Assembly: GCA_963668695.2 (NCBI GenBank)
Contig: CAXXLQ010000004.1
Coordinates: 928,001 to 992,000 of the forward strand
DNA length: 64,000 nucleotides
DNA from: Vicinamibacteria bacterium
Lineage (GTDB): Bacteria; Acidobacteriota; Vicinamibacteria; Marinacidobacterales; Marinacidobacteraceae
Reading direction: 5' to 3'
Every line of letters begins with the position of its first letter. The stretch's first letter is position 1. Below, piece by piece: positions 4,130 through 53,793 of the stretch. A program made the translations under genes and the position numbers. The notes under the pieces are model-generated. The model was given only the letters and a program-made list of their open reading frames with translations, did not search any database and was not told the DNA's origin.

Positions 4130-4672
4130 TCCGCCCGCCTCCGGCGGGCGGTGCCGACCCCCACTGGGAGAACTGGCCAGAGGTCGGCGGTCCAGGCCGT
4201 CCCCGCGCTTTTTTCGCGGCTGGCGGTGCGCGGTTTCGACCGCCTCTCGGCGGTCGATGCCGGTCGGAGACCGGCGCTCCGCTGTCGCGCGCGCTCCACG
4301 CGGTTCGGGGGTACGCGGTTCCCGGGCCTGCGCGCCACCCTGTCCTCCGGGGTACGCGCCGAGAAAGGAGCCATCCCGACGGTCAGGGTCCACGCCGCCG
4401 CGGCCCTGCGGGCCGCTGTGCCGGGCCACCGGGAGAACTGCCCGGAGGTCGGCGTTCCAAGCCGTCCCCGCGCTTTTGCTCAGTCGGCGGTACGCGGTTT
4501 CGACCGCCTCTCGGCGGTCGATGCCGGTCGGAGACCGGCGCTCCGCTGTCGCGCGCGCTCCACGCGGTTCGGGGGTACGCGGGGTTTCAAGCCGTCCCCG
4601 CGATTCTTCTCGCTCGGCGGTACGCCCTCCGCGGCGCTACGCGCCGCGGTGCCGGTGTGAACACCGGCGGCC
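4130..4672. repeat. Cluster of REP-like palindromes (BIME-like) including a ~89-bp direct repeat
   Basis: GCGGTTTCGACCGCCTCTCGGCGGTCGATGCCGGTCGGAGACCGGCGCTCC...GGGGGTACGCGG at ~4230 and ~4494; GCCGA/GGTCGGCG hairpins carrying the 19-bp module at 4157 and 4426. Confidence 0.8.
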
Positions 4673-25487: not shown

Positions 25488-27624
25488 TCAGGGGGCGCTG
25501 ACCGAAACCGCAGCGCGCGCCATGGCGATCCCGGAGGCCGAAGCCATCGCGTCGTAGTAGCCGACAAAGCGCCGGGTTTCCGGGGCGTCGTAGGGGCGCA
25601 GGTTTTCGGCCCAGCGGTATCCGATGGACTGATACCAGAGGGCCACCTCCACGGTGAGCGGGCCCCGGGCCCCGGCCAGATCCACCGAGTAGCGGACCCG
25701 ATCCCCGCCGGCAGCGAAGTCCGCGTCCGCGCCGGCGCGCCCGTGGACCGCGATGTCCGGCCCGGCGGCCGCCTTGTCGAACCCGGTGGGTAGCAGCCGG
25801 TTGTCCTTGACGTAGCGCACGCCGTGGAGGAGGCCCGTCGTGACCGCATCGGTGCTGTCAACCAGAATGGATTCGTAGATCTGGACCTCACCGGCCTCGG
25901 TGATCGCTTCGTAGTGCGGTTCGTAGGCGCGGGGGTTGGCGTCGTTGTCGTTGCCCTCGATCTGCCCGTCCGGGCCGAGGGCCCCCGATTGGAAGAGAAC
26001 TGCTCCGCCCGCATCGCGGACCGTCAACTCCAGCCAGACCCGCCGTGACGGGTAGGCGGTCGGCAGCTTGTGACCGGCGAGGCTTTCGATGACGACCTCA
26101 GCTTCGAGACGGCCCGCTTCGATCCGCGCACCCTCGATCCGGACGCGGGCGCTTTCCTTTTGCAGATGCTCGCGGGCATCCCGGGCCGCGAGCTCCAACT
26201 CCTGCGGCAGGGCTTCGACGCCGAGTTCGGTGCGGTAGCGCAGGAGCATCCGCAACATGAAGGCGTTGCCGCCGCGGAACGAGTGCCGCGAAAGACCCTC
26301 CCGTTCCTCGCCGAGCACCGAACTGATCGGCGCCGGCGTCTCGACCTCCGGCATGTGGCAGTCCTGGCAGGACTGCCGGGTCCGATAGTCGCTCGCGAGC
26401 CACTCCTGATAGGGCGTCTGCTCGGGCAGTTCGCCGATGACCTCGCCGTCCGGCCCCAGCGCGTGGGTGATCAGGGTGTGGCAGGTGGCGCAGAGTTCCG
26501 AATCCTGAATGTGCGAAGCCTCGGTCTGCCGAAAACCCGTCGTCGACTGCATCAGCCGGATCCGGTTGTCCTCGATCTCGAAGGGGCCGAAGATGGCCCG
26601 CTCGCCGTCGGGCCGCTCGGTGTCAATCCGGAAGTTGCCGGTGAGGCTCGCCTCGGTCCCCAGCCCCTCGTCGGTGATCTGGTGGCAAAGCGCGCAGGAC
26701 ACGCCGTCCGCGGCGAGCAGGCCCTGTGGGGTGGAGGCCGAACCGATCGGCAGGTGTTCGAAAACGGTCCCGAGGCCGCCGCCGGCATTCGCCTGGTAGC
26801 GGGCCATCGGCATGTGGCACTTGGAGCATTCATCCTCGATGGCGGCGGCGGCTTCCGGATGGTCCATCGTTTCGCGCCGGACCGCCGCTTGCCAGTACGG
26901 ATCGCGCGCCGAGTTGGCCATCATGGAGGCCCGCCAGTCGAATCCGATCGAGACGTCCTCCCCGGTGGCAGTGGTGAGTCCGTTGTGACAGGCGAGGCAG
27001 GATTGGCTGGTGGTGAACAGATCCGCGGTGTGGACAGCGCGGGGCTCCGACTGGGCGGCGGCCGAAAACCCGGGCGAGCGGATGGCCAGGAGACCCAGCG
27101 CCCCCAGGACGATTCCCAGCGGTAACAGCCTGTGGTGGAACCCGGGTGAGCGCCGAGGTGGGCGAGGCCCAGTTCTCCCGGTGGGGCCAGTTCTCCCGGT
27201 GGGGGCCCGGCTGACAAGGCGCGTGAGGGAGGAATACCTGGTGTATTTCGACCGAAACGCAACGATGAGCGGCGCGAAGCGACGCGGTGAACAGCCGGTG
27301 GTGGAACCCACGTGAGCGCCGAGGCCGGGGAGGCCCAGTTCTCCCGGTGGGGCCAGTCCTCCCGGTGGGGGCCCGGCTGACAAGGCGCGTGAGGGAGGAG
27401 CCCCCACCGGGAGAACTGGCCCGCGTGTATTCCGACCGAAACGCAACGATGAGCGGCGCGAAGCGACGCGGTTCAGCCGGGATGGATCGCCGGCCGAGCC
27501 CCCACCGGGAGAACTGGGCCGCGTGGGTTTCATCACCGGTTGTTTGGCCGGGATGGATCGCCCGCCAGCCCCCACCGAACTGGGCCGCCTGGGTTTCAGC
27601 ACAGGCTGTTAACCAGCGAATCAC
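25488..27624 (-). CDS. Penta-heme c-type cytochrome whose signal-peptide region is interrupted by a nested MITE
   Basis: CLACH, CSKCH, CALCH, CATCH, CQDCH; removing the insert restores MIRWL|PLGIVLGALGLLA. Confidence 0.85.
27123..27611. mobile_element. MITE-like element, copy 4, with a second copy nested inside (~27290-27544)
   Basis: Outer TAACAGCCTGTGG...CACAGGCTGTTA; inner AACAGCCGGTGGTGGAACCC...TTTCATCACCGGTTGTT; two cores. Confidence 0.85.
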
Positions 27625-40642: not shown

Positions 40643-41097
40643 TAGCGGCCCGTGGACAAGGTGGGGCGAGCACCGAGAGCGGCGAGGCCCAGTTCTCCCG
40701 GTGGGGCCAGTTCTCCCGGTGGGGCCAGTTCTCCCGGTGGGGGCCCGGCTGACAAGGCGCGCGAGGGAGGAGCTCCCACCGGGAGAACTGGCCCGAGTGT
40801 CTTTCGACCGAAGCGCAACGATGAGCGACGCGCAGCGGCAGTTCTCCCGGTGGGGGGGCGGTTCAGCCGGGATGGATCGCCGCTCGCTTCCGGAGCGGGG
40901 CGACAGCACCGCGCAGACCCCGGAGCGGAAGGGACAGGGGGCGGGGCACCCCGACCCCTAGCCCTGCTGGCTCGGGCTTCCGGAGCGGGGCGACAGCACC
41001 GCGCAGACCCCGGAGCGGAAGGGACAGGGGGCGGGGCACCCCGACCCCTAGCCCTTCTGGCTCGGGAATGCCGGTTCAGTTTGTTCACGGGCTGCTA
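40643..41097. mobile_element. Expanded, diverged MITE-like element, copy 6, abutting the nqrA start codon
   Basis: TAGCGGCCCGTG...CACGGGCTGCTA ends; core present; five 18-19-bp modules; internal 90-bp tandem duplication (40886 and 40976). Confidence 0.8.
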
Positions 41098-41137: not shown

Positions 41138-41212
41138 GGAAGAACTGGCGGGGCCGGAGAAACTGGCGGGGCCGGAGAAACTGGCGGGGCCGGAGAAACT
41201 GGCGGGGCCGGG
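41138..41212. repeat. 18-bp tandem repeat x4 (CCGGAGAAACTGGCGGGG)
   Basis: Directly visible; resembles the dispersed module core CCGGGAGAACTGG. Confidence 0.9.
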
Positions 41213-41296: not shown

Positions 41297-42220
41297 TCAG
41301 GTCTCCCGGGGGGGCGCCGCCTTCCGGCGAACCGCCTGCTGGCGGGCCGCCTTCTTCGCGGCCTTCTTGCGGGTCGCTTTCTTCCGAGCCGCCTTCTTGC
41401 GGGTCGCCTTCTTCCGCGTGGCCTTCTTCCTCGCGGCTTTCTTCCGCGTGACCTTCTTCCGCGTGACCTTTTTCCGCGCCGCCTTCTTCACCGGGCGTTC
41501 CGAGTCCCGTGACTTCGGCTCCGTCTCGATCTCGACCCCGAAGAGGGCGGCCAGATCCTCCGGGCCGAACGCTTCGTCTTCGGGCGGGGCCGCCGCCTCG
41601 ACCGCCGCGCCCACCAGGTCGTCGGCGCTCACCCCCCGCAGGGTGAAGAGCTGTCCCGGGTCGTGGTCCAGCCGTGCGCCGATGCCGTACATCGCGGCGG
41701 CCGCGTGCTTGCACATCTCCGCCCAGTCGGGACAGGAGCAGTCCAACGCGATCTCGTCGGGCGACGGGAAGAGTCCTTCGCCGGGCCGGCTCACGATCTC
41801 CATCACGCGCTGGGGCGGCCTGCCGGAAAGAAGCTCCACCAGCGATCCGATCTCGCCGGCGCACTCGGTGCGAACGGACTTCCAGCGAGCTTCGGGGAGC
41901 GCAGCGATCCGGACGGAGATCTCGTAGAGGTCCGTCCCGTTGACCAGGGCGCGGACGAGACCCGGCTCCACCGCGAGGTGGACAACCGACCCGGTGCGCA
42001 CGTATTTCCGGCCGCGGGGCATGCGATTCTCGAAATCGCTGTAGTGAAGCAGGTTCTCGCACCACGCCTTGCCCCAGAAGGTCTTCGCGATCCGGTTGCC
42101 GGAGATCGGCTCCACGGGCACGACCTCCTTCCCCTCCTTCTTCAGCTTCCGGAGCCGCTCGGAAGCCCGGAAGCGCAGCTCGCCCACCGTCGGCGGCGAA
42201 TACCAGCGGCGGTAGTACAA
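41297..42220 (-). CDS. SWIM zinc-finger protein with histone H1-like basic tail
   Basis: CSCPDWAEMCKH; NRMPRGRKY; C-terminal (RKKAT/RKKAA/RKKVT)n from a 15-bp repeat. Confidence 0.9.
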   Translation of the reverse strand: MYYRRWYSPPTVGELRFRASERLRKLKKEGKEVVPVEPISGNRIAKTFWGKAWCENLLHYSDFENRMPRGRKYVRTGSVVHLAVEPGLVRALVNGTDLYEISVRIAALPEARWKSVRTECAGEIGSLVELLSGRPPQRVMEIVSRPGEGLFPSPDEIALDCSCPDWAEMCKHAAAAMYGIGARLDHDPGQLFTLRGVSADDLVGAAVEAAAPPEDEAFGPEDLAALFGVEIETEPKSRDSERPVKKAARKKVTRKKVTRKKAARKKATRKKATRKKAARKKATRKKAAKKAARQQAVRRKAAPPRET

Positions 42221-43160: not shown

Positions 43161-45925
43161 GCGACCTCACTCTCGACGGCGCGTCCGAGGTCGAGCCGCA
43201 CGAGATCCACGAGCTGATCGTCGCTCATTTCGGTGAGCGCCGCCTCCGCCCCGGCGGACAGCACCTCGGCGGAGAGCTGGCGCTTGTCCTGGATCATCGC
43301 GTCAATCCGCTCTTCCAGAGTGCCCCGGCAGACGAACTTGTGCACGAGGACGTTCCGGTGCTGGCCGATGCGGTAGGCCCGGTCGCTGGCCTGGTCCTCC
43401 ACCGCCGGATTCCACCAGCGGTCGAAGTGGATCACGTGCGAGGCCGCCGTCAGGTTCAGCCCGACGCCGCCGGCCTTCAGCGAGAGCGCGAGGAACGGCG
43501 TCCGCTCGTCCTCCTGGAACCGCCGGACGATCCCCGGCCGTTTCCTCACCGGAGTCCCGCCGTGGAGGATCAGCCCCGGCCGGCCGAACACGCGGTCGAG
43601 GAAGGCGGCGAGCGGCGGGAGCAGAGCGCGGAACTGGGTGAAGACGAGCGCCTTGTCCTGCCGCGCGGCGACCGATTCGCAGATCTCCCGTAGCCGCGTG
43701 AACTTCCCGCTCTCCGCGGGGTCGAAGTCGCCGTCGCCCAGCCACTGGGAGGGATGGTTGCAGATCTGCTTGAAGCGGGTCAGGAAGGCGAGCACCACGC
43801 CCCGGCGCTTGATCCCGTCTTCCGCCTTGAGGGCCGCCTCCATCTCAGCGACGGCTCGTTCGTAGAGTGCCGCCTGCTTCCGGCTGAGGGCGCAAAAAGC
43901 GGTGACCTCGGTCTTGTCCGGGAGGTCCGCGATGATGCTCCGGTCGGTCTTGAGCCTCCGGAGGACGTACGGCCGGAGGAGCCGGCGAAGCGGCGCGTAG
44001 CCCTGCTTCCGGTCCCGGGCCATGGATTTCGCGGCGCGCTGGAACTCCTTCGCGGTCCCGAGGAGCCCCGGGTTCAGGAAGTCGAAGAGCGACCAGAGAT
44101 CCCCCAGCCGGTTCTCCACCGGGGTCCCGGTGAGCGCGAGCTTCCAGCCGGCCGGGATCGCCTTGACCGCGCGCGTCTGTTTCGCGGCCGGGTTCTTGAT
44201 CGCCTGCGCCTCGTCGAGCACCACGCTGCGCCAGCGCCGCTTCCGCATCCACGGCGTGCGCAGGACCGTGCCGTAGGTCGTCACCACCAGATCGGCGGCA
44301 GCGAGTTCGGCTGCCGGGAGCTTCTTGAGGCGCGCCGACGGAATCCGGGACGGATGCGCGATCAGCAACCGCAGCTGCGGCGCGAAGCGCTCGGCTTCCC
44401 GCCGCCAGTTCTCGAGGAGCGACGCCGGCGCGACCAGCAGGTCCGGGCCTTTTTCACGGTTTTGGGCCTCACCGTTTTGGGCCTCGCCGTCCTGAGCCGC
44501 GAGGCAGAACACGGCGAGCGCCTGGATGGTCTTCCCGAGCCCCATGTCGTCGGCAAGACAGCCGCCGAGCCGGAGGCCCCGGAGGGTGAGCAGCCAGCCC
44601 ACCCCGCGCTCCTGGTAGGGGCGGAGGACCGCCCGCAGTCCGGCCTCTGCGGCCGCTTCAGCCGGCGGCGGGGCGTCCCGCAGCGCCCGGAGCTGCTCCC
44701 GGAGCCAGGGACCGGCAACCACGTTCGACCAGTCGGGGGCCTCCGGATCTTCGACCTCGCCGGACGCTTCCGAGAGGTTGACCCCGGCGAGGAGCCGCAT
44801 CGCCTCGCCCAGCGGGATCCCGAGCGCCTCGGCACGCTCCTGCGCCTTCTCCCAGACGCCGAGCACCTCCCGGAGTTTCTCCGCGTCCACCTCGACCCAT
44901 TTCCCCCGGATGAGCGCCAGTCCTTCGGAAGCACCGAGGAGTTCTGCGCGCTCGGCCTCGCTGAGCGCTTCGCCGTCGAGGGTGAGCGAGAGGTCGAAAT
45001 CGAGCAGGGCGTCCACCCCCAGCCGCGACGGTTCGCGCGATCCCACGGTGACGGAGACCCGCGGCCGGGGCGGCGCCTTCGGGTTCCACCAATCGGGCGT
45101 TCGGGTCACGAGCCCGGCGCGTTCATAGACGGCGGTCTCGCGGAGGAAGCGGTGGGCCTCGGCCGCGCTCCAGGGCAGCGGCCGGTAGATGCGCCCCGAA
45201 GCCAGTAACTCCCGCAGGAACTCGCTCTCTTCCGCGGCGCGGTTGAGCGGGGCGAGCAGCGCGAGCAGCTTCTTGCGGTTCCGCTGGCCGGCGTAGTCGC
45301 GGAGCGCCCGATGGAGCGGGAGGTGGGAGGGCTGGGCGCGCCCGGTCACCCGGTGGACGTAGGTCGCCATGAACGCGAACGGGTGGCGCGGGTCGCGGCG
45401 GTTCTCGGCGAGGTGGAGGCAGACCCGCCCCACCACGTTCCACAGGCGGCTCTCCTGCCGCAACCAGCCCGAGAGTCCGCCGGGCGCCGACCGCGCGCGC
45501 TCGGCGAGCACGCTGCCGAGATCGCGCCAGAGCCTTTCGAGGACCTCGGCGGTGACGAGTTCGGCGCCGGGCATCGGGGGAACCGATTCGGCGTGCCCGG
45601 CCAGCCCTCCCGGATCGGGCTCGGGGTGGACGAAGGTCTCGGGTTCCAGCGGATCGAGCGCCGTACAGGCGCCGGCGACGAACATCCGCCCGAGGTCACG
45701 CCAGAACTCCAGGGACGGATGGAAGTCCGTCCCGGGCTCCGCCACCCCGAGGTGCAGGACCCCGGCGGCCGGACCTTCGGCAAAGGCCTCCAGCACCCGC
45801 CTTTCTGCCGCGGCGGAGAGTTCCGGGCCCGGTTCGCCGGAAACGCCGACGAGGATCCGCCCGCCCGGCGTCCGTTCCGCGACGAGGACGCGCGGCTTCG
45901 GTTCCGGGCCCGCGGCTGGTTCCAT
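43157..45925 (-). CDS. SNF2-family helicase/ATPase
   Basis: LADDMGLGKT, DEAQAIKN, LTGTPVEN, SLKAGGVGLNL, DRWWNPAVEDQASDRAYRIGQ. Confidence 0.95.
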   Translation of the reverse strand: MEPAAGPEPKPRVLVAERTPGGRILVGVSGEPGPELSAAAERRVLEAFAEGPAAGVLHLGVAEPGTDFHPSLEFWRDLGRMFVAGACTALDPLEPETFVHPEPDPGGLAGHAESVPPMPGAELVTAEVLERLWRDLGSVLAERARSAPGGLSGWLRQESRLWNVVGRVCLHLAENRRDPRHPFAFMATYVHRVTGRAQPSHLPLHRALRDYAGQRNRKKLLALLAPLNRAAEESEFLRELLASGRIYRPLPWSAAEAHRFLRETAVYERAGLVTRTPDWWNPKAPPRPRVSVTVGSREPSRLGVDALLDFDLSLTLDGEALSEAERAELLGASEGLALIRGKWVEVDAEKLREVLGVWEKAQERAEALGIPLGEAMRLLAGVNLSEASGEVEDPEAPDWSNVVAGPWLREQLRALRDAPPPAEAAAEAGLRAVLRPYQERGVGWLLTLRGLRLGGCLADDMGLGKTIQALAVFCLAAQDGEAQNGEAQNREKGPDLLVAPASLLENWRREAERFAPQLRLLIAHPSRIPSARLKKLPAAELAAADLVVTTYGTVLRTPWMRKRRWRSVVLDEAQAIKNPAAKQTRAVKAIPAGWKLALTGTPVENRLGDLWSLFDFLNPGLLGTAKEFQRAAKSMARDRKQGYAPLRRLLRPYVLRRLKTDRSIIADLPDKTEVTAFCALSRKQAALYERAVAEMEAALKAEDGIKRRGVVLAFLTRFKQICNHPSQWLGDGDFDPAESGKFTRLREICESVAARQDKALVFTQFRALLPPLAAFLDRVFGRPGLILHGGTPVRKRPGIVRRFQEDERTPFLALSLKAGGVGLNLTAASHVIHFDRWWNPAVEDQASDRAYRIGQHRNVLVHKFVCRGTLEERIDAMIQDKRQLSAEVLSAGAEAALTEMSDDQLVDLVRLDLGRAVESEVA

Positions 45926-45957
45926 CGGGCGGAGAGAGTATTCGCGTGCCCCGGGTC

Positions 45958-46005
45958 GGGAGTCAGCGGATCAGGGAGTCAGCGGCTCAGGAGTCAGCGG
46001 ATCGG
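45958..46005. repeat. ~16-bp tandem repeat x3 (GGGAGTCAGCGGATCA)
   Basis: Directly visible upstream of the helicase gene. Confidence 0.85.
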
Positions 46006-46077
46006 GGACGTCGCGGCCGCGGCTGGCGGAACGCCCCGGGGGCCGGCGCTATGGATCACCCGGGGCCGGTTCATGAG

Positions 46078-46166
46078 CCACAACGCCCGTTGTGGTGCAC
46101 AGGTGATCCACTAATCCCGTTGTGGATCACTTTTCGTCGTAAGTGAGACACAACGCCCGTTGTGAA
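46078..46166. promoter_or_regulatory. Three CACAAC-N4-GTTGTG palindromes upstream of the SNF2-SWIM operon
   Basis: CACAACGCCCGTTGTG at 46079 and 46149, variant CACTAATCCCGTTGTG at 46109; flanking GTGA/TCAC arms. Confidence 0.55.
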
Positions 46167-46209
46167 TCACCGGTGAGACACAAGAAGCCCTGGAGGCCCC
46201 CAAGAGCCG

Positions 46210-47658
46210 CTACGGTTTGCCGCCGGGTCGCGGGATCTTCAGTTCCGCCCACAGCCAGGACAGATCCACCGGGCGGCGACTGTCCTCAACGGCGCTTCGT
46301 GATTCGAGGTTCTCGATTCCCTTGAGCCACTCCACCACGGCAGCGCGACCTTTCTTCGTCTTCACCGCCCGCCGGGGCGTTCGTTTCCCCAGCATGGGAA
46401 CCGGCTCGTCCAGGACCTGCCGGTAGTGCTCCTCATACTGGCCGCGCACGAGCGCCTCCATGACCTCGGGCGGCAGGTCCGGTTTCTTCGGTTTCGGCGG
46501 CGATTCTCCCGGCGGGGTTCGAAGTCGCTGCGCGGGATCCTCGTGCGAGGTCAACGGATTCCCCAGCAGCGGCCCGAGACGCGAGTTGAGCAACTCCCGT
46601 CCCCGCTCGGCGCGTTCGACGGAGTTCACGCGGAGCAAGAGAGCTCCGTCCACGATCTCGGCGCTCCCGAGGTCGAGATAGGCGACACCCGCCTCCGGAT
46701 CGTCCTGTAAAAGCTCTCTGGGAAGCCGCAGCGCCGAAACAGCGCGGCCCTGCCACGACCACCGCAGTTCGTTCCCATCCGCCCGGTCGAACTCGGGGAC
46801 GTCGTCCAGCGCGGCGGCGACTTCGGTCTCACTTCCCTTGATCGGAAACCGAACAGTGGACAGGACCAAGGGTTCGTCATCCGTGTTCCTCATCTGGGGG
46901 AGGGGGGCCTCGAGCCGTTCCAGGGTCCACTCCGCATAGGAAGTCGTGAAGAAGACTCCAGCTTTGGGGCTCTGCAGCAAGAAATCCCGCGTCTCAGCCT
47001 CACTGGCTTCCTGATCTTGGCCCAACTTCTTCGCGGCCTTGCGAATCTCCTTCTGGAGATCCTTGGCGATACCTCCAAGTCTCGCGATGCAGTGCTGGGC
47101 CAGCTCGCGGGGGAAGTGGAGCACCGCCCCGGTAAAGCACCTCGTCCGGCCCACCCGCACCACCCGCGCGAAGACGCAGTCCCAAAGACCCAGCGTTTCG
47201 GAGCCGGCCTGTTCGTCCACCCGCACCGGCTCGCTTTCCCGGATGAGGTCCCGAACGGTCAGTTCGCGGCCGCGCTTGAAATCCACTACCTCGTAGAGCG
47301 AAGCCGTCGAGTCCCGGAGGGCCAGGAGATAGTTGCGGGCGGGGCCTTTCTCGAGCCATCCCCGCCGGGCGAGGTAGCCGTCCACCACGTTCTCCTCCCC
47401 GTCCTCGCCGAAGCGAGCGGAGAGAAAGTCCTCAAAGATGCAGGCGAAAAACGGTGGCCCCAGCGGACCCAGTCTGTTGAACAGTTCCTTGTCGGAGATT
47501 CCGATTTCTTCGAACTGCTCCAAGTGGACCGCGAACACGCTGTTCTTGCGGTCCTCCCACTCGTTGCCGCTCGCCCACTGCATGACGTTTCTCACGGCTC
47601 GCTCGCCGCCGCGAATACGCACGACAGAAAGGTAACGGAACCAGCCTCCCGTAGGCAC
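46210..47658 (-). CDS. Conserved-looking hypothetical protein with C-terminal DUF2384/MbcA-like motif
   Basis: 482-aa ORF; SLYEVV, LDEPVPMLGKRTPR, WLWAELKI; start uncertain. Confidence 0.7.
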   Translation of the reverse strand: MPTGGWFRYLSVVRIRGGERAVRNVMQWASGNEWEDRKNSVFAVHLEQFEEIGISDKELFNRLGPLGPPFFACIFEDFLSARFGEDGEENVVDGYLARRGWLEKGPARNYLLALRDSTASLYEVVDFKRGRELTVRDLIRESEPVRVDEQAGSETLGLWDCVFARVVRVGRTRCFTGAVLHFPRELAQHCIARLGGIAKDLQKEIRKAAKKLGQDQEASEAETRDFLLQSPKAGVFFTTSYAEWTLERLEAPLPQMRNTDDEPLVLSTVRFPIKGSETEVAAALDDVPEFDRADGNELRWSWQGRAVSALRLPRELLQDDPEAGVAYLDLGSAEIVDGALLLRVNSVERAERGRELLNSRLGPLLGNPLTSHEDPAQRLRTPPGESPPKPKKPDLPPEVMEALVRGQYEEHYRQVLDEPVPMLGKRTPRRAVKTKKGRAAVVEWLKGIENLESRSAVEDSRRPVDLSWLWAELKIPRPGGKP

Positions 47659-47708
47659 CCATCGATGGCGCGCCGGGAGAGACTGCCGACCTCCCGGTCG
47701 GCATCGCT

Positions 47709-47783
47709 CCGCCGCCAGATCCGGCTACTGCGACATGTTCCCGCCCAGCCGATCCCGCTGGAGCAACATGTTCCCCTGCCAGA
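47709..47783. repeat. Detached degenerate units of the satellite
   Basis: CCAGATCCGGCTACTGCGACATGTTCCC...GCAACATGTTCCCC. Confidence 0.8.
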
Positions 47784-47840
47784 CCAGGACTGTCAGGAAT
47801 TGGGACTGTCAGGAATTCCGTGTGTAGGCGGGTGACTGTG

Positions 47841-48160
47841 GAATAGACGCATGCTCGGGCCGACCGATCCCGGAATTGACGCATGGTTCAGCCAACCGGC
47901 TCCGAAATAGACGCATGCCCGAGTCAACCGATTCCGGAATTGACGCATGCTCAGGCCGACCGATCCCGGAATTGACGCATGGTTGAGCCAGCCGACACCG
48001 GAATAGACGCATGCCCGGGCCGACCGATCCCGGAATTGACGCATGGTTGAGCCGGCCGACCCCGAAATAGACGCATGCCCGGGTCAACCGGCTCCGAAAT
48101 AGACGCATGCTCAGGCCAGCCGATCCCGGGATTGACGCATGGTTGAGCCAGCCGACACCG
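47841..48160. repeat. Ten 32-bp tandem units (family 1, core GACGCATG)
   Basis: e.g. GAATAGACGCATGCTCGGGCCGACCGATCCCG and GAATTGACGCATGGTTGAGCCAGCCGACACCG; exact 32-bp period over 320 bp. Confidence 0.95.
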
Positions 48161-51030
48161 CTAGTGCGACATGTCCAGCCAGCCGACACCGCTAGTGCGA
48201 CATGTTCCCCCGACAGATCCCGCTATTGCGACATGTTCGGCTTCAGCAGATCCGGCTAGTGCAACATGTTCCTCCGCCAGATCCCGCTATTGCGACATGT
48301 TCGGCTTCAGCAGATCCCGCTAGAGCGACATGTTCCCCCGCCAGATCCCGCTATTGCGACATGTTCGGCTTCAGCAGATCCCGCTAGAGCGACATGTTCC
48401 CCCGCCAGATCCCGCTACTGCGACATGTTCGACCCCAGCAGATCCTGCTAGGGCGACATGTTCCCCCGCCAGATCCCGCTACTGCGACATGTTCGACCCC
48501 AGCCGACCCCGCTAGAGCGACATGTTCCCCCGCCAGATCCCGCTACTGCGACATGTTCGACCCCAGCCGACCCCGCTAGAGCGACATGTTCCCCCGCTAG
48601 AACCCGCTACTGCGACATGTTCGACCCAGCCGACCCCGCTAGAGCGACATGTTCCCCCGCCAGATCCCGCTACTGCGACATGTTCGACCCCAGCCGACCC
48701 CGCTAGAGCGACATGTTCCCCCGCCAGATCCCGCTATTGCGACATGTTCGGCTTCAGCAGATCCCGCTAGTGCGACATGTTCCCCCGCCAGATCCCGCTA
48801 TTGCGACATGTTCGGCTTCGGCCGACCCCGCTAGTGCGACATGTTCCCCCGCCAGATCCCGCTATTGCGACATGCGACATGTTCGACATGTTCCCCCGCC
48901 AGATCCCGCTATTGCGATGTTCGGCTTCGGCCGACCCCGCTAGTGCGACATGTTCCCCCGCCAGATCCCGCTACTGCGACATGTTCGACCCCAGCCGACC
49001 CCGCTAGTGCGACATGTTCCCCCGCCAGATCCCGCTACTGCGACATGTTCGACCCCGGCCGACCCCGCTAATGCGACATGTTCCCCCGCCAGATCCCGCT
49101 ATTGCGACATGTTCGGCTTCAGCAGATCCCGCTAGTGCGACATGTTCCCCCGCCAGATCCCGCTATTGCGACATGTTCGGCTTCGGCCGACCCCGCTAGT
49201 GCGACATGTTTCCCGCCAGATCCCGCTATTGCGACATGTTCGGCCAGCAGATCCCGCTAGAGCGACATGTTCCCCCGCCAGATCCCGCTACTGCGACATG
49301 TTCGACCCCAGCCGACCCCGCTAGTGCGACATGTTCCCCCGCCAGATCCCGCTACTGCGACATGTTCGACCCCAGCCGACCCCGCTAGAGCGACATGTTC
49401 CCCCGCCAGATCCCGCTACTGCGACATGTTCGACCCCAGCCGATCCCGCTAGAGCGACATGTTCCCCCGCCAGATCCCGCTACTGCGACATGTTCGACCC
49501 CCAGATCCCGCCGATGTTCCCCCGCTAGCTACTGCGACATGTTCGACCCAGCCGATCCCTAGTGCGACATGTTCCTCCGCCAGTCCCGTTACTGCGACAT
49601 GTTCCCAGCCAACCGACCCCGCTAGTGCGACATGTTCCCCCGCCAGATCCCGCTAGTGCGACATGTTCCCCCGCCGATCCCGCTAGTGCGACATGTTCCC
49701 CCGCCAGATCCCGCTAGTGCGACATGTTCCCCCGCCAGATCCCGCTAGTGCGACATGTTCGGCTTCAGCAGATCCCGCTAGTGCGACATGTTCGACATGT
49801 TCAGCCGACCCCGCTAGAGCGACATGTTCCCCCGCCAGATCCCGCTACTGCGACATGTTCGACCCCAGCCGATCCCGCTAGAGCGACATGTTCCCCCGCC
49901 AGATCCCGCTACTGCGACATGTTCGACCCCAGCCGACCCCGCTAGAGCGACATGTTCCCCCGCCAGATCCCGCTACTGCGACATGTTCGACCCCAGCCGA
50001 CCCCGCTAGTGCGACATGTTCCCCCGCCAGATCCCGCTACTGCGACATGTTCGACCCAGCCCCGCTAGTGCGACATGTTCGACCCCAGCCGACCCCGCTA
50101 GTGCGACATGTTCCCCCGCCAGATCCCGCTAGTGCGACATGTTCGACAGATCCCGCTAGTGCGACATGTTCCCCCGACAGATCCCGTTGCGACATGTTCG
50201 ACCCCAGCCGACCCCGCTAGAGCGACATGTTCCCCCGCCAGATCCCGCTACTGCGACATGTTCGACCCCAGCCGACCCCGCTAGTGCGACATGTTCCCCC
50301 GCCAGATCCCGCTACTGCGACATGTTCGACCCCAGCCGACCCCGCTACTGCGACATGTTCCCCCGCCAGATCCCGCTACTGCGACATGTTCGACCCCAGC
50401 CGACCCCGCTAGAGCGACATGTTCCCCCGCCAGATCCCGCTAATGCGACATGTTCGCCTCCAGCCGACTGCGACATGTTCGCCAGATCCCCTACTGCGAC
50501 CGAGCCCCGCTAGAGCGACATGTTCCCCCGCCAGATCCCGCTAGTGTGCGACATGTTCCCCCGCCAGATCCGGCTAGTGCGACATGTTCCCGGCCAGCCG
50601 ACCCCGCTAGTGCGACATGTTCCCCCGCCAGACCCGGCTAGTGCGACATGTTCCGCCCACCGACCCCGCTGCGACATGTTCCCCCGAGATCCCGCTACTG
50701 CGACATGGACCCCGGGAACCCCTGCGAATTCCCCCGCTCCCGAGAGCGATCCCGCTAGTGCGACATGTTCCCCCGCCAGATCCCGCTACTGCGACATGTT
50801 CCCCCGGCAGATCCCGCTAGAGCGACATGTTCCCCCGCCAGATCCCGCTATTGCGACATGTTCGACCCCAGCCGACCCCGCTAGAGCGACATGTTCCCCC
50901 GCCAGATCCCGCTACTGCGACATGTTCGACCCCAGCCGACCCCGCTAGTGCGACATGTTCCCCCGCCAGATCCCGCTACTGCGACATGTTCCCCCGCCAG
51001 ATCCCGCTAGAGCGACATGTTCCCCCCGAC
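48161..51030. repeat. Satellite array of about 90 units (family 2): alternating 31-bp and 33-bp units, 64-bp higher-order period
   Basis: A = GCGACATGTTCCCCCGCCAGATCCCGCTACT, B = GCGACATGTTCGACCCCAGCCGACCCCGCTAGA; spurious ORF starts recur every 64 bp. Confidence 0.97.
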
Positions 51031-51176
51031 AGGCCCGAAACGCGCCAGCGAGCCGAGAGCGGGAAGAAGGCCCAGAAGGGGTGGCAACAAATGGCAGTCC
51101 TCCAGGGCAGACTCCTCGACACCGCGAAGTCCAGAGTGCCCCGCCCTTCCCCGTTCGCCGCCGGCCCCGCCGGACG

Positions 51177-52025
51177 GTGGCTGAGAACGTGCGCCACATC
51201 TGTGGCATTTCGGGGGGCAAGGACTCCAGCGCGCTCGCCCTCTATCTGCGCGGCAAGGTGCCGGACATGGAGTACTTCTTCTGCGACACCGGCGCGGAGC
51301 TCCCTGAGACCTACGAGTACCTGACCCGGCTCGAAGTGTTGCTCGGCCGCCCGATCGTCCGCCTGAACGCCGAACGGGGCTTCGACCATTGGTTCGAGGT
51401 GTTCCGCGGCGCGCTGCCCTCGCCCCAGATGCGCTGGTGCACCCGCAACATGAAGATCAAGCCGATCGAGGCGTGGATCGGGGACGAACCGGCGGTGTCC
51501 TACGTGGCGATCCGCGCCGACGAGGCGAACCGCAAGGGGTACATCTCCACGAAGCCGAACATCAAGAGCCGCTTCCCGTTCGTCGAGGACGGGGTTGACC
51601 GGGACGGCGTGATGCGGATCCTGGAGGACGCCGGGATCGGCCTTCCGAGCTACTACGAGTGGCGTACCCGGTCGGGGTGCTACTTCTGCTTCTACCAGCG
51701 CAAGGCGGAGTGGGTCGGCCTCGCGGACCGCCACCCAGACCTCTTCGAGCGTGCGGTGGCGATTGAGCAGAAGGTGCTGCAGGACGCCGGGGTTGCGGGG
51801 GACGCGGATTTCGGGGATCAGGCGATGCGGGGTCGGAACTACACCTGGTCCGGCGGCGAAAGCCTCCCCCAACTCCACGCCCGCCGGGACGAAATCCTCC
51901 GGAAGCATCATGACTCGCTGTCGCGCTCCCGGCGATCACGGCAGAACGTCCCGCTTCTCGAAGTGCTGGGGGACGCTCTCGACGAGGACGACGACACCAC
52001 GCCGTGCACCGTCTGCGCGCTGTAG
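51177..52025 (+). CDS. PAPS-reductase family protein, SspD/DndC-like (DNA phosphorothioation-associated type)
   Basis: ISGGKDS PP-loop, CDTGAELPETY, RWCTRNMKIKP, IRADE, RSGCYFCFYQ, terminal CxxC; GTG start inferred. Confidence 0.85.
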   Translation: MAENVRHICGISGGKDSSALALYLRGKVPDMEYFFCDTGAELPETYEYLTRLEVLLGRPIVRLNAERGFDHWFEVFRGALPSPQMRWCTRNMKIKPIEAWIGDEPAVSYVAIRADEANRKGYISTKPNIKSRFPFVEDGVDRDGVMRILEDAGIGLPSYYEWRTRSGCYFCFYQRKAEWVGLADRHPDLFERAVAIEQKVLQDAGVAGDADFGDQAMRGRNYTWSGGESLPQLHARRDEILRKHHDSLSRSRRSRQNVPLLEVLGDALDEDDDTTPCTVCAL

Positions 52026-52057
52026 CAGCGGCTGGTTCGGCCAGGCGCCGTTTCGAT

Positions 52058-53793
52058 TCAGACGTAGGGCGTGCCGCTCCATTCCGGAACCTGCTGGTTC
52101 TGTTGCAGCCGTAGCCGCTGCAGATTCAAGGCGGAAAAGCAGCCATCAAGATCGGTATCCGTCGGTGGGATGCCCGGCAAGCTGACCGCCGCCTCCAGCA
52201 TGAACCGCTCGGCCAGCGGGTGGTGCGGGTCCGCCCGGTACGCATCGCGCCACCAGCCGACGATCCGACCCTCAGCAGCCCGAAGCAGCCGGTCGGACGG
52301 CAACCGGTTCCGCTTCTGGCGCTGATTGACTGTTCGATCCGCGGGCAGGAGGTTCCAGAGATCTCCGCAGGGCCACACCGACCACGGAAAACAGTGGTCG
52401 ATGTCGAGCTTGTCCACGGACAGGCGCTTGCCACTCCATACGCAATGGAGCGGCTGCTCGGTGAGCAACCGCTCGGCCCGTTCCCGTGCAATGCCCACGT
52501 CCCGTTTGGGATCCTCCCAGGTCATGGCGTCAGAGAGCCGGGCAGTATCGAGCAGGCGTCCTTGGCTCTCCGCGTAGGATCGGGTCACCCGAGCCCATTC
52601 GGCGATGATGGCGGGCTCGATCCAGGCGGCGAAGCGTTGCGCCGCCAACCACAGGTGGGTTGGCACCCGCATCGTGCCGAAGCTGGCGAGATACGGCTCA
52701 TCCAGCCGCGCGGCGCCCGGATAACGCCCGGCCCCGACGGCGCACACGCGAAGAATCGGATTCGTCCCGCTGGGATACGTCATGTAGTGCGCCGGCATTC
52801 TGCGGATCGTTTGGACGGCATCCTTGAGCGCCTGATGAAGCGCCCCGCCGCTGTCGCCGCTGAGCCGTAAGCCCACGCGCAGATCGCGATGCGACAGGTC
52901 TGTGAGCCGTCCCAGCGCCTCCTTGGCGAAACCGAGTTGCTCGCCACCACGCCGGTTCTGTGGGCTCTGGGGCATGTTCGCCGCCAGCAGCGGCTTGTAG
53001 AGCCGAATCCACGTCAGCGCCACCAGGCCCATCGGGACCGCGACGTACTCTTCGTCCGTGGACGACGCGAGCCCGCCCGCGCCGTCCGCAATGCGGCAGA
53101 GCACGCGGAGCAGCCCGAGTTTGTAGGTGGAGTTCTTGTCATCGTTCAGGATGACGTGGCGCAGCAGCGGCAGAGCGCCGGTGCCGTCGTCCGGCAGCCG
53201 GACCGCCAGTTGTTGCCAGCGGATCTCGCTGCGGCCGAGATAGTCCTCGGCCGTGACCTCCCGCTCGACGAACGCGCCGTGGTCACGGGCCAGGCTCTTG
53301 ATCTCCCCGACGGAAACGGGATGGCTGCCGCGTTGTCCCTCGGAAGGGCCGCAGCGCAGTGTGATGGCCAAGACGCCGCCCGGCTTGAGCAGCGTAATCA
53401 GTTTCCTGAACGCCCTCGCCCGGTCCGATGCGGCGACGTGCATCCAGACCGCGCTGACCAGGATGACGTCGAAGGCGAGGCCCGTCCGGAACGTGCGTTT
53501 GAGACCGGGCAGCGAGTCGGAGATCCACTGGATGCGAGGAACATCATGCTGTTCGCGCGCCATCGTCCGGAGTCTGGAGGACGGTTCGACCGCGACGACA
53601 TTGTGGCCTTTGTAGGCCAACCATGCCGCGTCGCGACCGCTGCCCGCGCCGATGTCGAGGACGGTCGCAGGCTGCGAGGGCAGCAGGTCCGTCAGCCAGC
53701 CGTGCCTTCCGGTACGCGCTCTGGGGAGACAGCCTCGTAGCGATCCGCCAGCGTCTCCGCGTGCGTGTTGTACCAGGCGATCTCGTCGGACAC
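52058..53793 (-). pseudogene. Class I SAM methyltransferase - HNH nuclease fusion, frameshifted near codon 28
   Basis: LDIGAGSGRDA, SAVWMH, TYKLGLLR, CVWSG, DIDHCFPW, WNLLP; the N-terminus VSDEIAWY...ERV is out of frame by the 8 bases at 53705-53712. Confidence 0.82.

Follow-up and report, generated by a model that had tools for sequence, protein, structure and literature searches.

Between two divergently oriented genes of a Vicinamibacteria bacterium (GenBank assembly GCA_963668695.2, contig CAXXLQ010000004.1), an intergenic region is filled by a long tandem array of short units that we call family F1. The stretch of DNA analysed, referred to as the window, covers 64,000 nucleotides of this contig (positions 928,001 to 992,000 of the forward strand), and coordinates without a prefix are positions in the window, whereas those beginning with C4 refer to the main contig. 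The array is the largest of the six F1 arrays in this genome, and with four sister families it apparently forms an undescribed, genus-specific superfamily of satellite DNA of which it is the largest member found; a full-text literature search with the genus name Marinacidobacterium returned no paper. The features of the locus are listed below, starting with the array itself.

48158..51044, plus strand: main F1 satellite array, 87 units arranged as 64-bp dimers (31 + 33 bp), from Tandem Repeats Finder (TRF), the unit list and motif counts
47722..47795, plus strand: two F1 units (cores at 47730 and 47763, read from the sequence), separated from the main array by an insertion-sequence (IS) fragment and an F3 array
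47787..47843, plus strand: 57-bp fragment of an IS256-family (Mutator-type) terminal inverted repeat, recognized by its recurrent 26-letter end
47840..48155, plus strand: array of the sister family F3, 10 units of 32 bp with the core GACGCATG(C/G), TRF period 32/96
46210..47658, minus strand: left flanking gene of 482 aa, reading away from the array, with no Pfam, NCBIfam or PADLOC match
51045..51176, plus strand: 132-bp spacer from the last unit to the start of sspD, common to the relative G026 and not to G025 (blastn against loci L092 and L093)
51177..52025, plus strand: orphan sspD with a GTG start, reading away from the array (PADLOC SspD, E 3e-108, full length; Pfam PAPS_reduct)

TRF describes 48158-51026 as a single tandem array with a period of 64, 45.4 copies, 82% matches, 8% indels and a score of 2482, and a period-128 reading of the same interval scores slightly higher (2973). 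Units anchored on the core GCGACATGTT, with at most one mismatch, number 89 in the searched interval 47650-51100: the main array (48166-51044) holds 87, and the other two are upstream at 47730 and 47763. From core to core, 40 spacings measure 31 bp and 31 measure 33 bp, in strict alternation over long runs, and the remaining 17 include 30 bp (four times), 28 bp (three times), the 403-bp gap to the upstream pair and odd values such as 25, 27, 36, 38, 45, 49, 71 and 89 bp. An initial annotation, made from the letters of the window, had described about 90 tandem units with a 31/33-bp alternation and a 64-bp period between divergent genes, and this description holds; the F3 array, the upstream pair of units and the genome-wide family were not part of it. 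Exact motif counts in 48151-51050 are 85 cores, 79 CCCGCTA and 89 ACATGT. Each head-to-tail unit of about 32 bp consists of a box, CCGCTA-NN-GCGACATGTTC (16-18 bp, about 17 letters), and a variable linker. A 20-letter pattern of the box matches the genome 152 times and the reversed pattern not once, which excludes chance.

The 31-bp units share a single consensus. Among the 33-bp B units (n = 30), 16 carry ACT with CGACCCC and seven carry ATT with CGGCTTC, the other seven being other combinations; ATT is found with CGACCCC once and ACT with CGGCTTC never. These two linked variants are grouped in runs of two to three, as had been noticed at the outset, and the order of units fits the block amplification then proposed. 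Ragged or truncated units, possibly read-consensus errors as the initial annotation suggested, lie at about 49485-49800 and 50445-50760. The plus strand of the main array is rich in C (A 517, C 1184, G 665, T 534; GC skew -0.22 to -0.30). The main array is non-coding, in agreement with the first reading: its period is not divisible by 3, and the longest frames open within it span only 82-142 aa.

The box and the linkers of these units differ strongly in variability. Substitutions were counted by whole-unit matching, with up to eight substitutions allowed and all positions weighted equally, over 293 units from the six arrays of this genome. The 10-bp core carried 10 substitutions at 2930 positions (0.34%), CGCTA 75 at 1465 (5.1%), the two N positions 90 at 586 (15.4%) and the linkers 472 at 4328 (10.9%). 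Within arrays, the core is about 30-fold less variable than the linkers. The box is identical in both unit types and the linkers have diverged between them; GCTA, which is part of no search pattern, recurs in 43 of the 46 unit consensuses derived from 23 arrays. To define families of arrays by their core is partly circular, which leaves the within-array contrast unaffected. The suggestion in the initial annotation that the array loads a protein gains indirect support from a core that is nearly invariant within and between arrays while the linkers vary, and the box would accordingly seem, from its pattern of variation, to be a recognition site under constraint, with a DNA-binding protein as its most likely reader. 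Boxes lie 21, 30-33, 53 and 64 bp from one another, each distance close to a whole number of helical turns, which would bring the sites to one face of the helix; since the families share a common ancestry, this spacing is weak evidence.

The F1 units are concentrated in arrays throughout the 4.1-Mb genome. It contains 319 exact F1 cores, 309 of them in seven arrays of 14-85 units and 10 as single cores, about the number expected by chance, and none of 205 blastn-short matches to F1 units in the genome fell outside arrays. One of the seven arrays belongs to a small contig whose sequence repeats part of the main contig, leaving six distinct F1 loci. All cores within any F1 array lie on a single strand, so that the units are direct repeats. 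A whole-genome TRF search, which is independent of the core, recovered four sister families with the same build and other cores.

F2: core GCTACAGCGTGGAGTTCC, 21-bp and 32-bp units alternating
F3: core GGAATTGACGCATGC, 32-bp units, five further arrays besides the one in the window
F4: 32-bp units
A fourth sister family: 30-bp units

The five families together occupy 18 loci and 23,357 bp; two of these loci have identical flanks, which is probably assembly redundancy, giving 17 distinct loci. In three cases out of six, an F3 array stands immediately before an array of another family and shares its orientation: at C4:422916, at C4:1173358 and in the window, where the F3 array adjoins the main F1 array on its upstream side. 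Every array is intergenic: the flanking genes diverge at seven, converge at five and lie on the same strand at the others. The 31 array-flanking proteins that were scanned are ordinary enzymes together with a few mobile or toxin-antitoxin gene products, and no neighbour family recurs among them except Amidohydro_1, which appears twice. The replication origin at dnaA (C4:1096265) coincides with the GC-skew minimum, and the six F1 arrays show no replication strand bias, three facing each way. The proposal that the main array is centromere-like is not borne out, as the six arrays are spread around the chromosome with no adjacent partition genes and no strand bias, the main one about 117 kb from dnaA.

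The genome as a whole is rich in repeats, with 143 tandem arrays of at least 250 bp (TRF). Many of these arrays are pile-ups of modules containing the 18-mer CCAGTTCTCCCGGTGGGG of a MITE (miniature inverted-repeat transposable element), which occurs 1631 times in the genome with at most two mismatches, including in the window at about 27169-27610, 40689-40742 and 41143-41211. A hairpin or 18-mer module also lies beside several satellite arrays, and this adjacency was set aside because an 18-mer of such abundance is expected there by chance. A 351-bp repeat, whose period is a multiple of 3, is present in 64.5 copies at C4:2804007-2826733 (22.7 kb) and in 19.8 copies at C4:3762099-3769062 (7 kb), and may lie inside genes for giant repeat proteins.

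The taxonomic range of the satellites is narrow. Five of the 15 congeneric genomes compared have the F1 dimer pattern, against none of 12 from six other genera of the family, and F2 (2 of 15 congeners) and F3 (6 of 15) are likewise confined to the genus; most of the pattern-negative congeners are fragmented assemblies, in which repeats are often missing. A scan of 185,579 species genomes, one per species, returned 73 loci, 27 with at least two matches and 46 with a single match. All 27 multi-match loci belong to records titled Candidatus Marinacidobacterium sp., Vicinamibacteria bacterium or Acidobacteria bacterium, and 45 of the 46 single-match loci are scattered across unrelated taxa. The satellite families are confined to one genus of uncultured, marine Acidobacteria, titled Candidatus Marinacidobacterium in the records of relatives. 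The 31 + 33 spacing recurs in arrays of at least six genomes.

Arrays of the relatives occupy the same places as those described here. For 18 of 26 array loci in relatives, a flank maps no more than 2 kb from an F1 array of this genome; for one of the 18 (L057) the flank match arises only through an IS copy, and a comparison of loci shows it to be the window locus. Orthologous arrays also retain linkers specific to their locus, for example GGCGTCCCGCCGATCC at one locus in three genomes and GATTCCGGCCGG at another in two. Regular units per genome number 77, 17, 16, 11 and 44 at the window locus, 62, 15, 14 and 51 at C4:2553692, 38, 4, 11 and 21 at C4:1574060, and 50, 4 and 29 at C4:574310, and copy number at orthologous sites ranges overall from 4 to 85 (about 20-fold). 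At the window locus, the orthologue of the left gene stands beside a tandem array in all six relatives examined. The F1 core is present there in four of them (G025, G026, G019 and G018), in two of which, G019 and G018, the DNA of the left gene is only 69-70% identical to that in the window. The other two (G016 and G021) have arrays of other families at this place, one with a 21 + 32 spacing; the position of the array is therefore older than the sequence that fills it. These arrays are inherited at fixed intergenic sites across species.

We give an about even chance to the explanation that this satellite is vertically inherited, that slippage and unequal recombination change its size, and that recognition by a protein preserves its box. 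Changes in array size would come from replication slippage together with unequal recombination, processes that would explain both the blocks of variants and the truncated units. Selection would retain the invariant box as the recognition site of a sequence-specific DNA-binding protein, in which case an array would bind many molecules of it, spaced by about three helical turns. Such binding might serve the cell, through nucleoid organization or titration, or only the upkeep of the repeat itself. The main rival, which we judge unlikely, is a neutral or selfish satellite: junk tolerated by a weakly selected symbiont and resized by slippage or unequal crossing-over, with a box that has no protein reader and is conserved only through homogenization or gene conversion. 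Such a satellite would suit a genome as unusually repeat-tolerant as this one (both the 18-mer and the tandem arrays counted above), the wide range of copy numbers at orthologous loci, the replacement of cores between families and species, and arrays that have neither a recurrent neighbour gene nor a replication strand bias. However, the 30-fold contrast between core and linker holds across the unit types A, B1 and B2, across arrays and across species, and whole-unit unequal exchange does not readily yield a contrast of this kind. Deletion bias is usual in bacteria, and despite it the arrays have kept their sites next to coding DNA of about 70% identity.

Several observations weigh against a protein-read box. 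No DNA-binding or partition family that could supply the reader recurs among the 31 flanking proteins. The box is replaceable, as other cores occupy the window locus in G016 and G021 and this genome itself holds four sister families, so that a binding-site role needs several proteins or a shifting specificity. The span from 4 to 85 copies argues against a dose-dependent role, about 15% of the spacings in the main array are irregular and break its phase, and because the families share ancestry, their common period need not have been selected. Homogenization starting at the palindromic core, and not selection, could be the source of box conservation. The consensuses behind the substitution counts were built from units anchored on exact cores. 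Finally, G021 and G024, near-complete genomes in 1-2 contigs, have none of the F1, F2 and F3 patterns.

By analogy with eukaryotic centromeres, a protein-read box can be taken one step further, to a model that we regard as unlikely and offer as speculation. A dedicated sequence-specific protein, or a small set of paralogues with one for each core family, would coat the boxes on one helix face, making the arrays bacterial counterparts of boxed satellites with higher-order repeats. They would be fixed sites of chromosome organization or anchoring, long held at their positions, while box and protein evolve together and now and then give way to others.

The edges of the arrays have accumulated insertion-sequence ends. 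The 26-letter IS256-type end found at 47803-47828 has nine copies in the genome with at most four mismatches, seven of them within 0-40 bp of a satellite array; after removal of the duplicate locus, six of eight distinct ends abut arrays. This enrichment has a binomial p of about 2e-12 if arrays with 100 bp on each side are taken as 0.65% of the genome, and of about 1e-6 if arrays are taken as 6% of the eligible intergenic DNA. Most of the array-adjacent ends are truncated, solo and facing the 5' side of the array, and they recur, on one side only, at F2 and F3 arrays and at the composite array of the window. In the latter, the IS fragment is preceded by a 16-bp partial duplicate and joins the F3 array at a short common GGAA. 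One copy of the end terminates an open reading frame (ORF) with the Pfam domain Transposase_mut (E 2e-129), and in G026 (L093) the left-gene orthologue is interrupted by a complete IS copy of 1.76 kb that has both its ends and what looks like an 8-bp target duplication. The array at C4:2887224 has an IS630-type DDE_3 gene next to it and lies between direct repeats formed by about 110 bp of an IS end. The 62-unit F1 array at C4:2553692-2555870 (L101) is interrupted by about 150 bp, made up of a direct repeat ending in ACTTTTACGCAC and a GC-rich hairpin, possibly another IS end.

This association raises the question of whether the arrays are amplified transposase-binding sites or are carried by insertion sequences (an IS256-type end, IS630 pairs), in which case the box would be read by a transposase. 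Besides the enrichment of truncated ends and the bracketed array beside the DDE_3 gene, the F3 unit and the IS256-type end both contain CGGAATT followed by GAC in the same orientation. Against an IS origin, this common 7-mer has an estimated chance probability of a few percent, five of the six F1 arrays have no adjacent IS256-type end, the arrays lie outside the IS end and not inside it, and no F1 box occurs at any repeat end outside arrays. Moreover, orthologous arrays predate species splits, whereas the IS copies differ between genomes. We consider an IS-linked repeat improbable.

The initial annotation had also raised the possibility that the array is the template of a repetitive non-coding RNA. 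On this reading, transcription would start in the divergent promoter region and the transcript would be processed to pieces of 32 or 64 nt. The array does fill a divergent intergenic region, and six short contigs of one metatranscriptome library (depth 2-6, 0-5 mismatches) lie on array sequence. In total, two metatranscriptome libraries gave eight and two short contigs at the locus, those on the array being of low depth and mostly mismatched and none lying on the single-copy left flank; the mismatched RNA contigs may be DNA carry-over from a multi-copy sequence. These contigs speak neither for nor against transcription. Other results do not favour an RNA template. No Rfam match falls within the array, the sole match being a chance mir-486 hit (E 0.57) outside it, and no sigma-70-like promoter site was found in 46000-52500, where all six terminator-like sites are outside the array. 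The consensus fold of 20 arrays, whether considered as RNA or as single-stranded DNA, consists only of trivial pairing between the 6-bp palindromes (ACATGT, ACAUGU in RNA) of neighbouring units. Arrays occur alike in divergent, convergent and tandem gene contexts, and no cas or processing genes are nearby. An RNA template is very improbable on this evidence, and a protein-read box remains the explanation that we favour.

The genes around the main array look like a defence island. SspD is the PAPS-reductase-like component of the Ssp DNA phosphorothioation system, and more distant neighbours are a ZorD/DpdE-type SNF2 helicase, a methyltransferase-HNH protein similar to mad2 and a nuclease of the Uma2 type. 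The nearest Atlas clusters of the left-gene product carry DUF7986 or are named Xre/MbcA/ParS-like (score 0.98), which is a lead only. At the same locus in G025, G016, G021 and G018, the array is followed by sspA, sspB where found, sspC and sspD. In this genome and in G026, sspABC are missing beside the array and homology to G025 resumes exactly at the sspD start; in G019, there is no ssp gene and the array abuts the mad2-like gene. The main array marks the edge of a variable defence island. The solitary sspD here, the loss of sspABC in G026 and the lack of ssp genes in G019 suggest that the Ssp phosphorothioation system is decaying or variable in this lineage. A functional link between array and Ssp was rejected, since ssp genes adjoin an array at the window locus only.

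Two further repeat-bearing features lie to the left of the array. Just downstream of the 482-aa gene, at 46047-46185, GTGAGACACAA and TTGTGGATCAC make up inverted and direct repeats, which form a cluster that is kept at the same position in six relatives (TRF periods 30/70 in L092 and L094-L097). An ORF on the minus strand at 41297-42220 has an extremely basic, repeat-rich C-terminus, and overlaps 15/30/45-bp tandem repeats at 41314-41489; its weak match in NCBIfam (E 4e-4) is to a DNA-binding protein that is histone H1-like.

Read depth differs between the two sides of the main array. In two DNA runs from different studies, contig depth was 205 on the left against 26 on the right and 157 against 23 (about 8-fold), measured over 45500-47740 and 51689-53000, with both flanks mismatch-free and single-copy in the assembly. 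A depth drop with single-copy flanks fits a right side carried by only some strains; alternatively, the array may be a point at which the assembly joins different strains. No assembled contig from the mapped read sets spans the main array, and its 87 units are the length as assembled. The genome is 91.7% complete with 9.3% contamination, a figure that duplicated regions fit. C4:3826024-3913787, at the end of the main contig, repeats C4:52206-139969, near its start, at a constant offset, and C1:137000-140500 is a second copy of the C4:308000-311000 locus including its array, which suggests assembly redundancy or a second strain.

These properties of the assembly, together with the presence of truncated units, bear on whether the main array is an artefact, really much shorter and inflated or mis-joined by the assembler: the depth difference, the redundancy and the missing spanning contig are all in keeping with one. 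On the other hand, arrays of the same family reach up to 59 cores at orthologous loci in independently assembled genomes. Both flanks are single-copy and are matched exactly by contigs of two studies, and the order of variants is not a simple pattern of collapse or expansion. We see scarcely any chance that the array is an artefact of this kind.

Non-coding satellites of kilobase scale are seen as typical of eukaryotes, and in prokaryotes their dispersed families are described as rare (PMC6749651). The genus described here offers an unusually complete case in long-read assemblies, with related families, a dimeric unit, a constant box beside drifting linkers and orthologous sites. Its arrays are also landing sites for insertion sequences and borders of a variable defence island, and they are breakpoints able to mislead the assembly and binning of these symbionts. 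If a protein reads the box, these bacteria would be a tractable model for the co-evolution of satellite DNA and its binding protein; if none does, they would be a clean example of the reach of selfish tandem DNA in a compact genome.

Several known systems resemble the arrays in part and were set aside. The arrays are not clustered regularly interspaced short palindromic repeats (CRISPR), as had been recognized from the start: the inter-core segments are not unique spacers but two or three recurring types, 23 of the 30 33-bp units being one of two variants, and no Cas family was found in the seven genes within about 7 kb, where the only match was a weak one to a Cas9d HNH region (22 bits against a cut-off of 375). 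A true CRISPR-like array with a different repeat lies at C4:3280876-3283455. A phage origin was rejected on the six single matches, with no arrays, in IMG/VR. Decoys for restriction enzymes were rejected likewise, as the core palindromes are not avoided outside arrays (observed/expected ratios of 0.99 for ACATGT, 1.01 for GCATGC and 1.04 for GATATC).

Enterobacterial repetitive extragenic palindromes and their mosaic elements (REP/BIME) are similar in being extragenic, present in high copy and grouped in clusters where units of two types alternate, with linkers both short and long. Host proteins bind them, and they consist of hairpin palindromes in alternating orientation and depend on a RAYT (Y1) transposase. 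In the present arrays, the units are direct on one strand, with no conserved hairpin, and no Y1 transposase was found: RAYT (PF01797) had no match in this 91.7%-complete genome, the control search being positive in 6 of 14 reference genomes. The sopC site of plasmid F is likewise composed of direct repeats, each a few tens of base pairs long and containing a short palindrome. Sites of this type load many copies of one DNA-binding protein, have about a dozen units and lie beside parAB-type genes, once per replicon. Here, by comparison, there are up to 87 units and six chromosomal sites, and a partition site of the sopC/parC/parS type has no support, as no parA/parB-type genes were found at the window flanks or among the 31 other flanking proteins. 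A more distant analogy is with eukaryotic centromeric satellites, which have boxed monomers with a variable remainder, higher-order units, block homogenization, a library of families and sequence turnover at a conserved position; they belong to another domain of life and another scale, and nothing found here ties the present arrays to segregation.

The closest class is that of dispersed minisatellites of the variable-number tandem repeat (VNTR) type, with which the arrays share head-to-tail, non-coding units of 10-100 bp, several intergenic loci and copy numbers that vary between relatives. Mycobacterial interspersed repetitive unit (MIRU)-VNTR loci are also dispersed intergenic minisatellites with strain-variable copy number at fixed loci. 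MIRUs have units of 40-100 bp, with few copies at each locus, and are found within operons, with small reading frames that overlap. The units described here are 31-33 bp long, number up to 87, contain no reading frame and combine a conserved box with variable linkers. BrickBuilt of Porphyromonas gingivalis is, as its description has it, a short-unit array (23 nt) without unique spacers, intergenic, multi-copy and restricted to a lineage, and it has leader and tail subunits with small inverted-repeat ends (PMC4596501). A MITE-borne minisatellite of this kind was rejected, since the F1 array flanks have no common leader or tail and only a one-sided IS256-type end is present at the F2 and F3 arrays and the composite array.

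The early remark that such an array is unusual in bacteria agrees with a survey of 261 prokaryote species, in whose account dispersed non-coding long-unit satellite families appear in only two, Leptospira interrogans and Methanocella conradii (Subirana and Messeguer 2019, PMC6749651). As reported there, these satellites are, like ours, related non-coding arrays spread over the chromosome, with units longer than 30 nt whose length is not a multiple of 3, and their families comprise 3-6 arrays of 37-69 nt units (PMC6749651, Table 2). Compared by architecture, the present system differs in its five families, 17 loci, up to 87 units, dimeric unit and cross-species orthology. Array size, a dimeric unit, a box with free linkers, sister families and long orthologous persistence set these satellites apart from those of L. 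interrogans and M. conradii, from MIRU-VNTR and from BrickBuilt.

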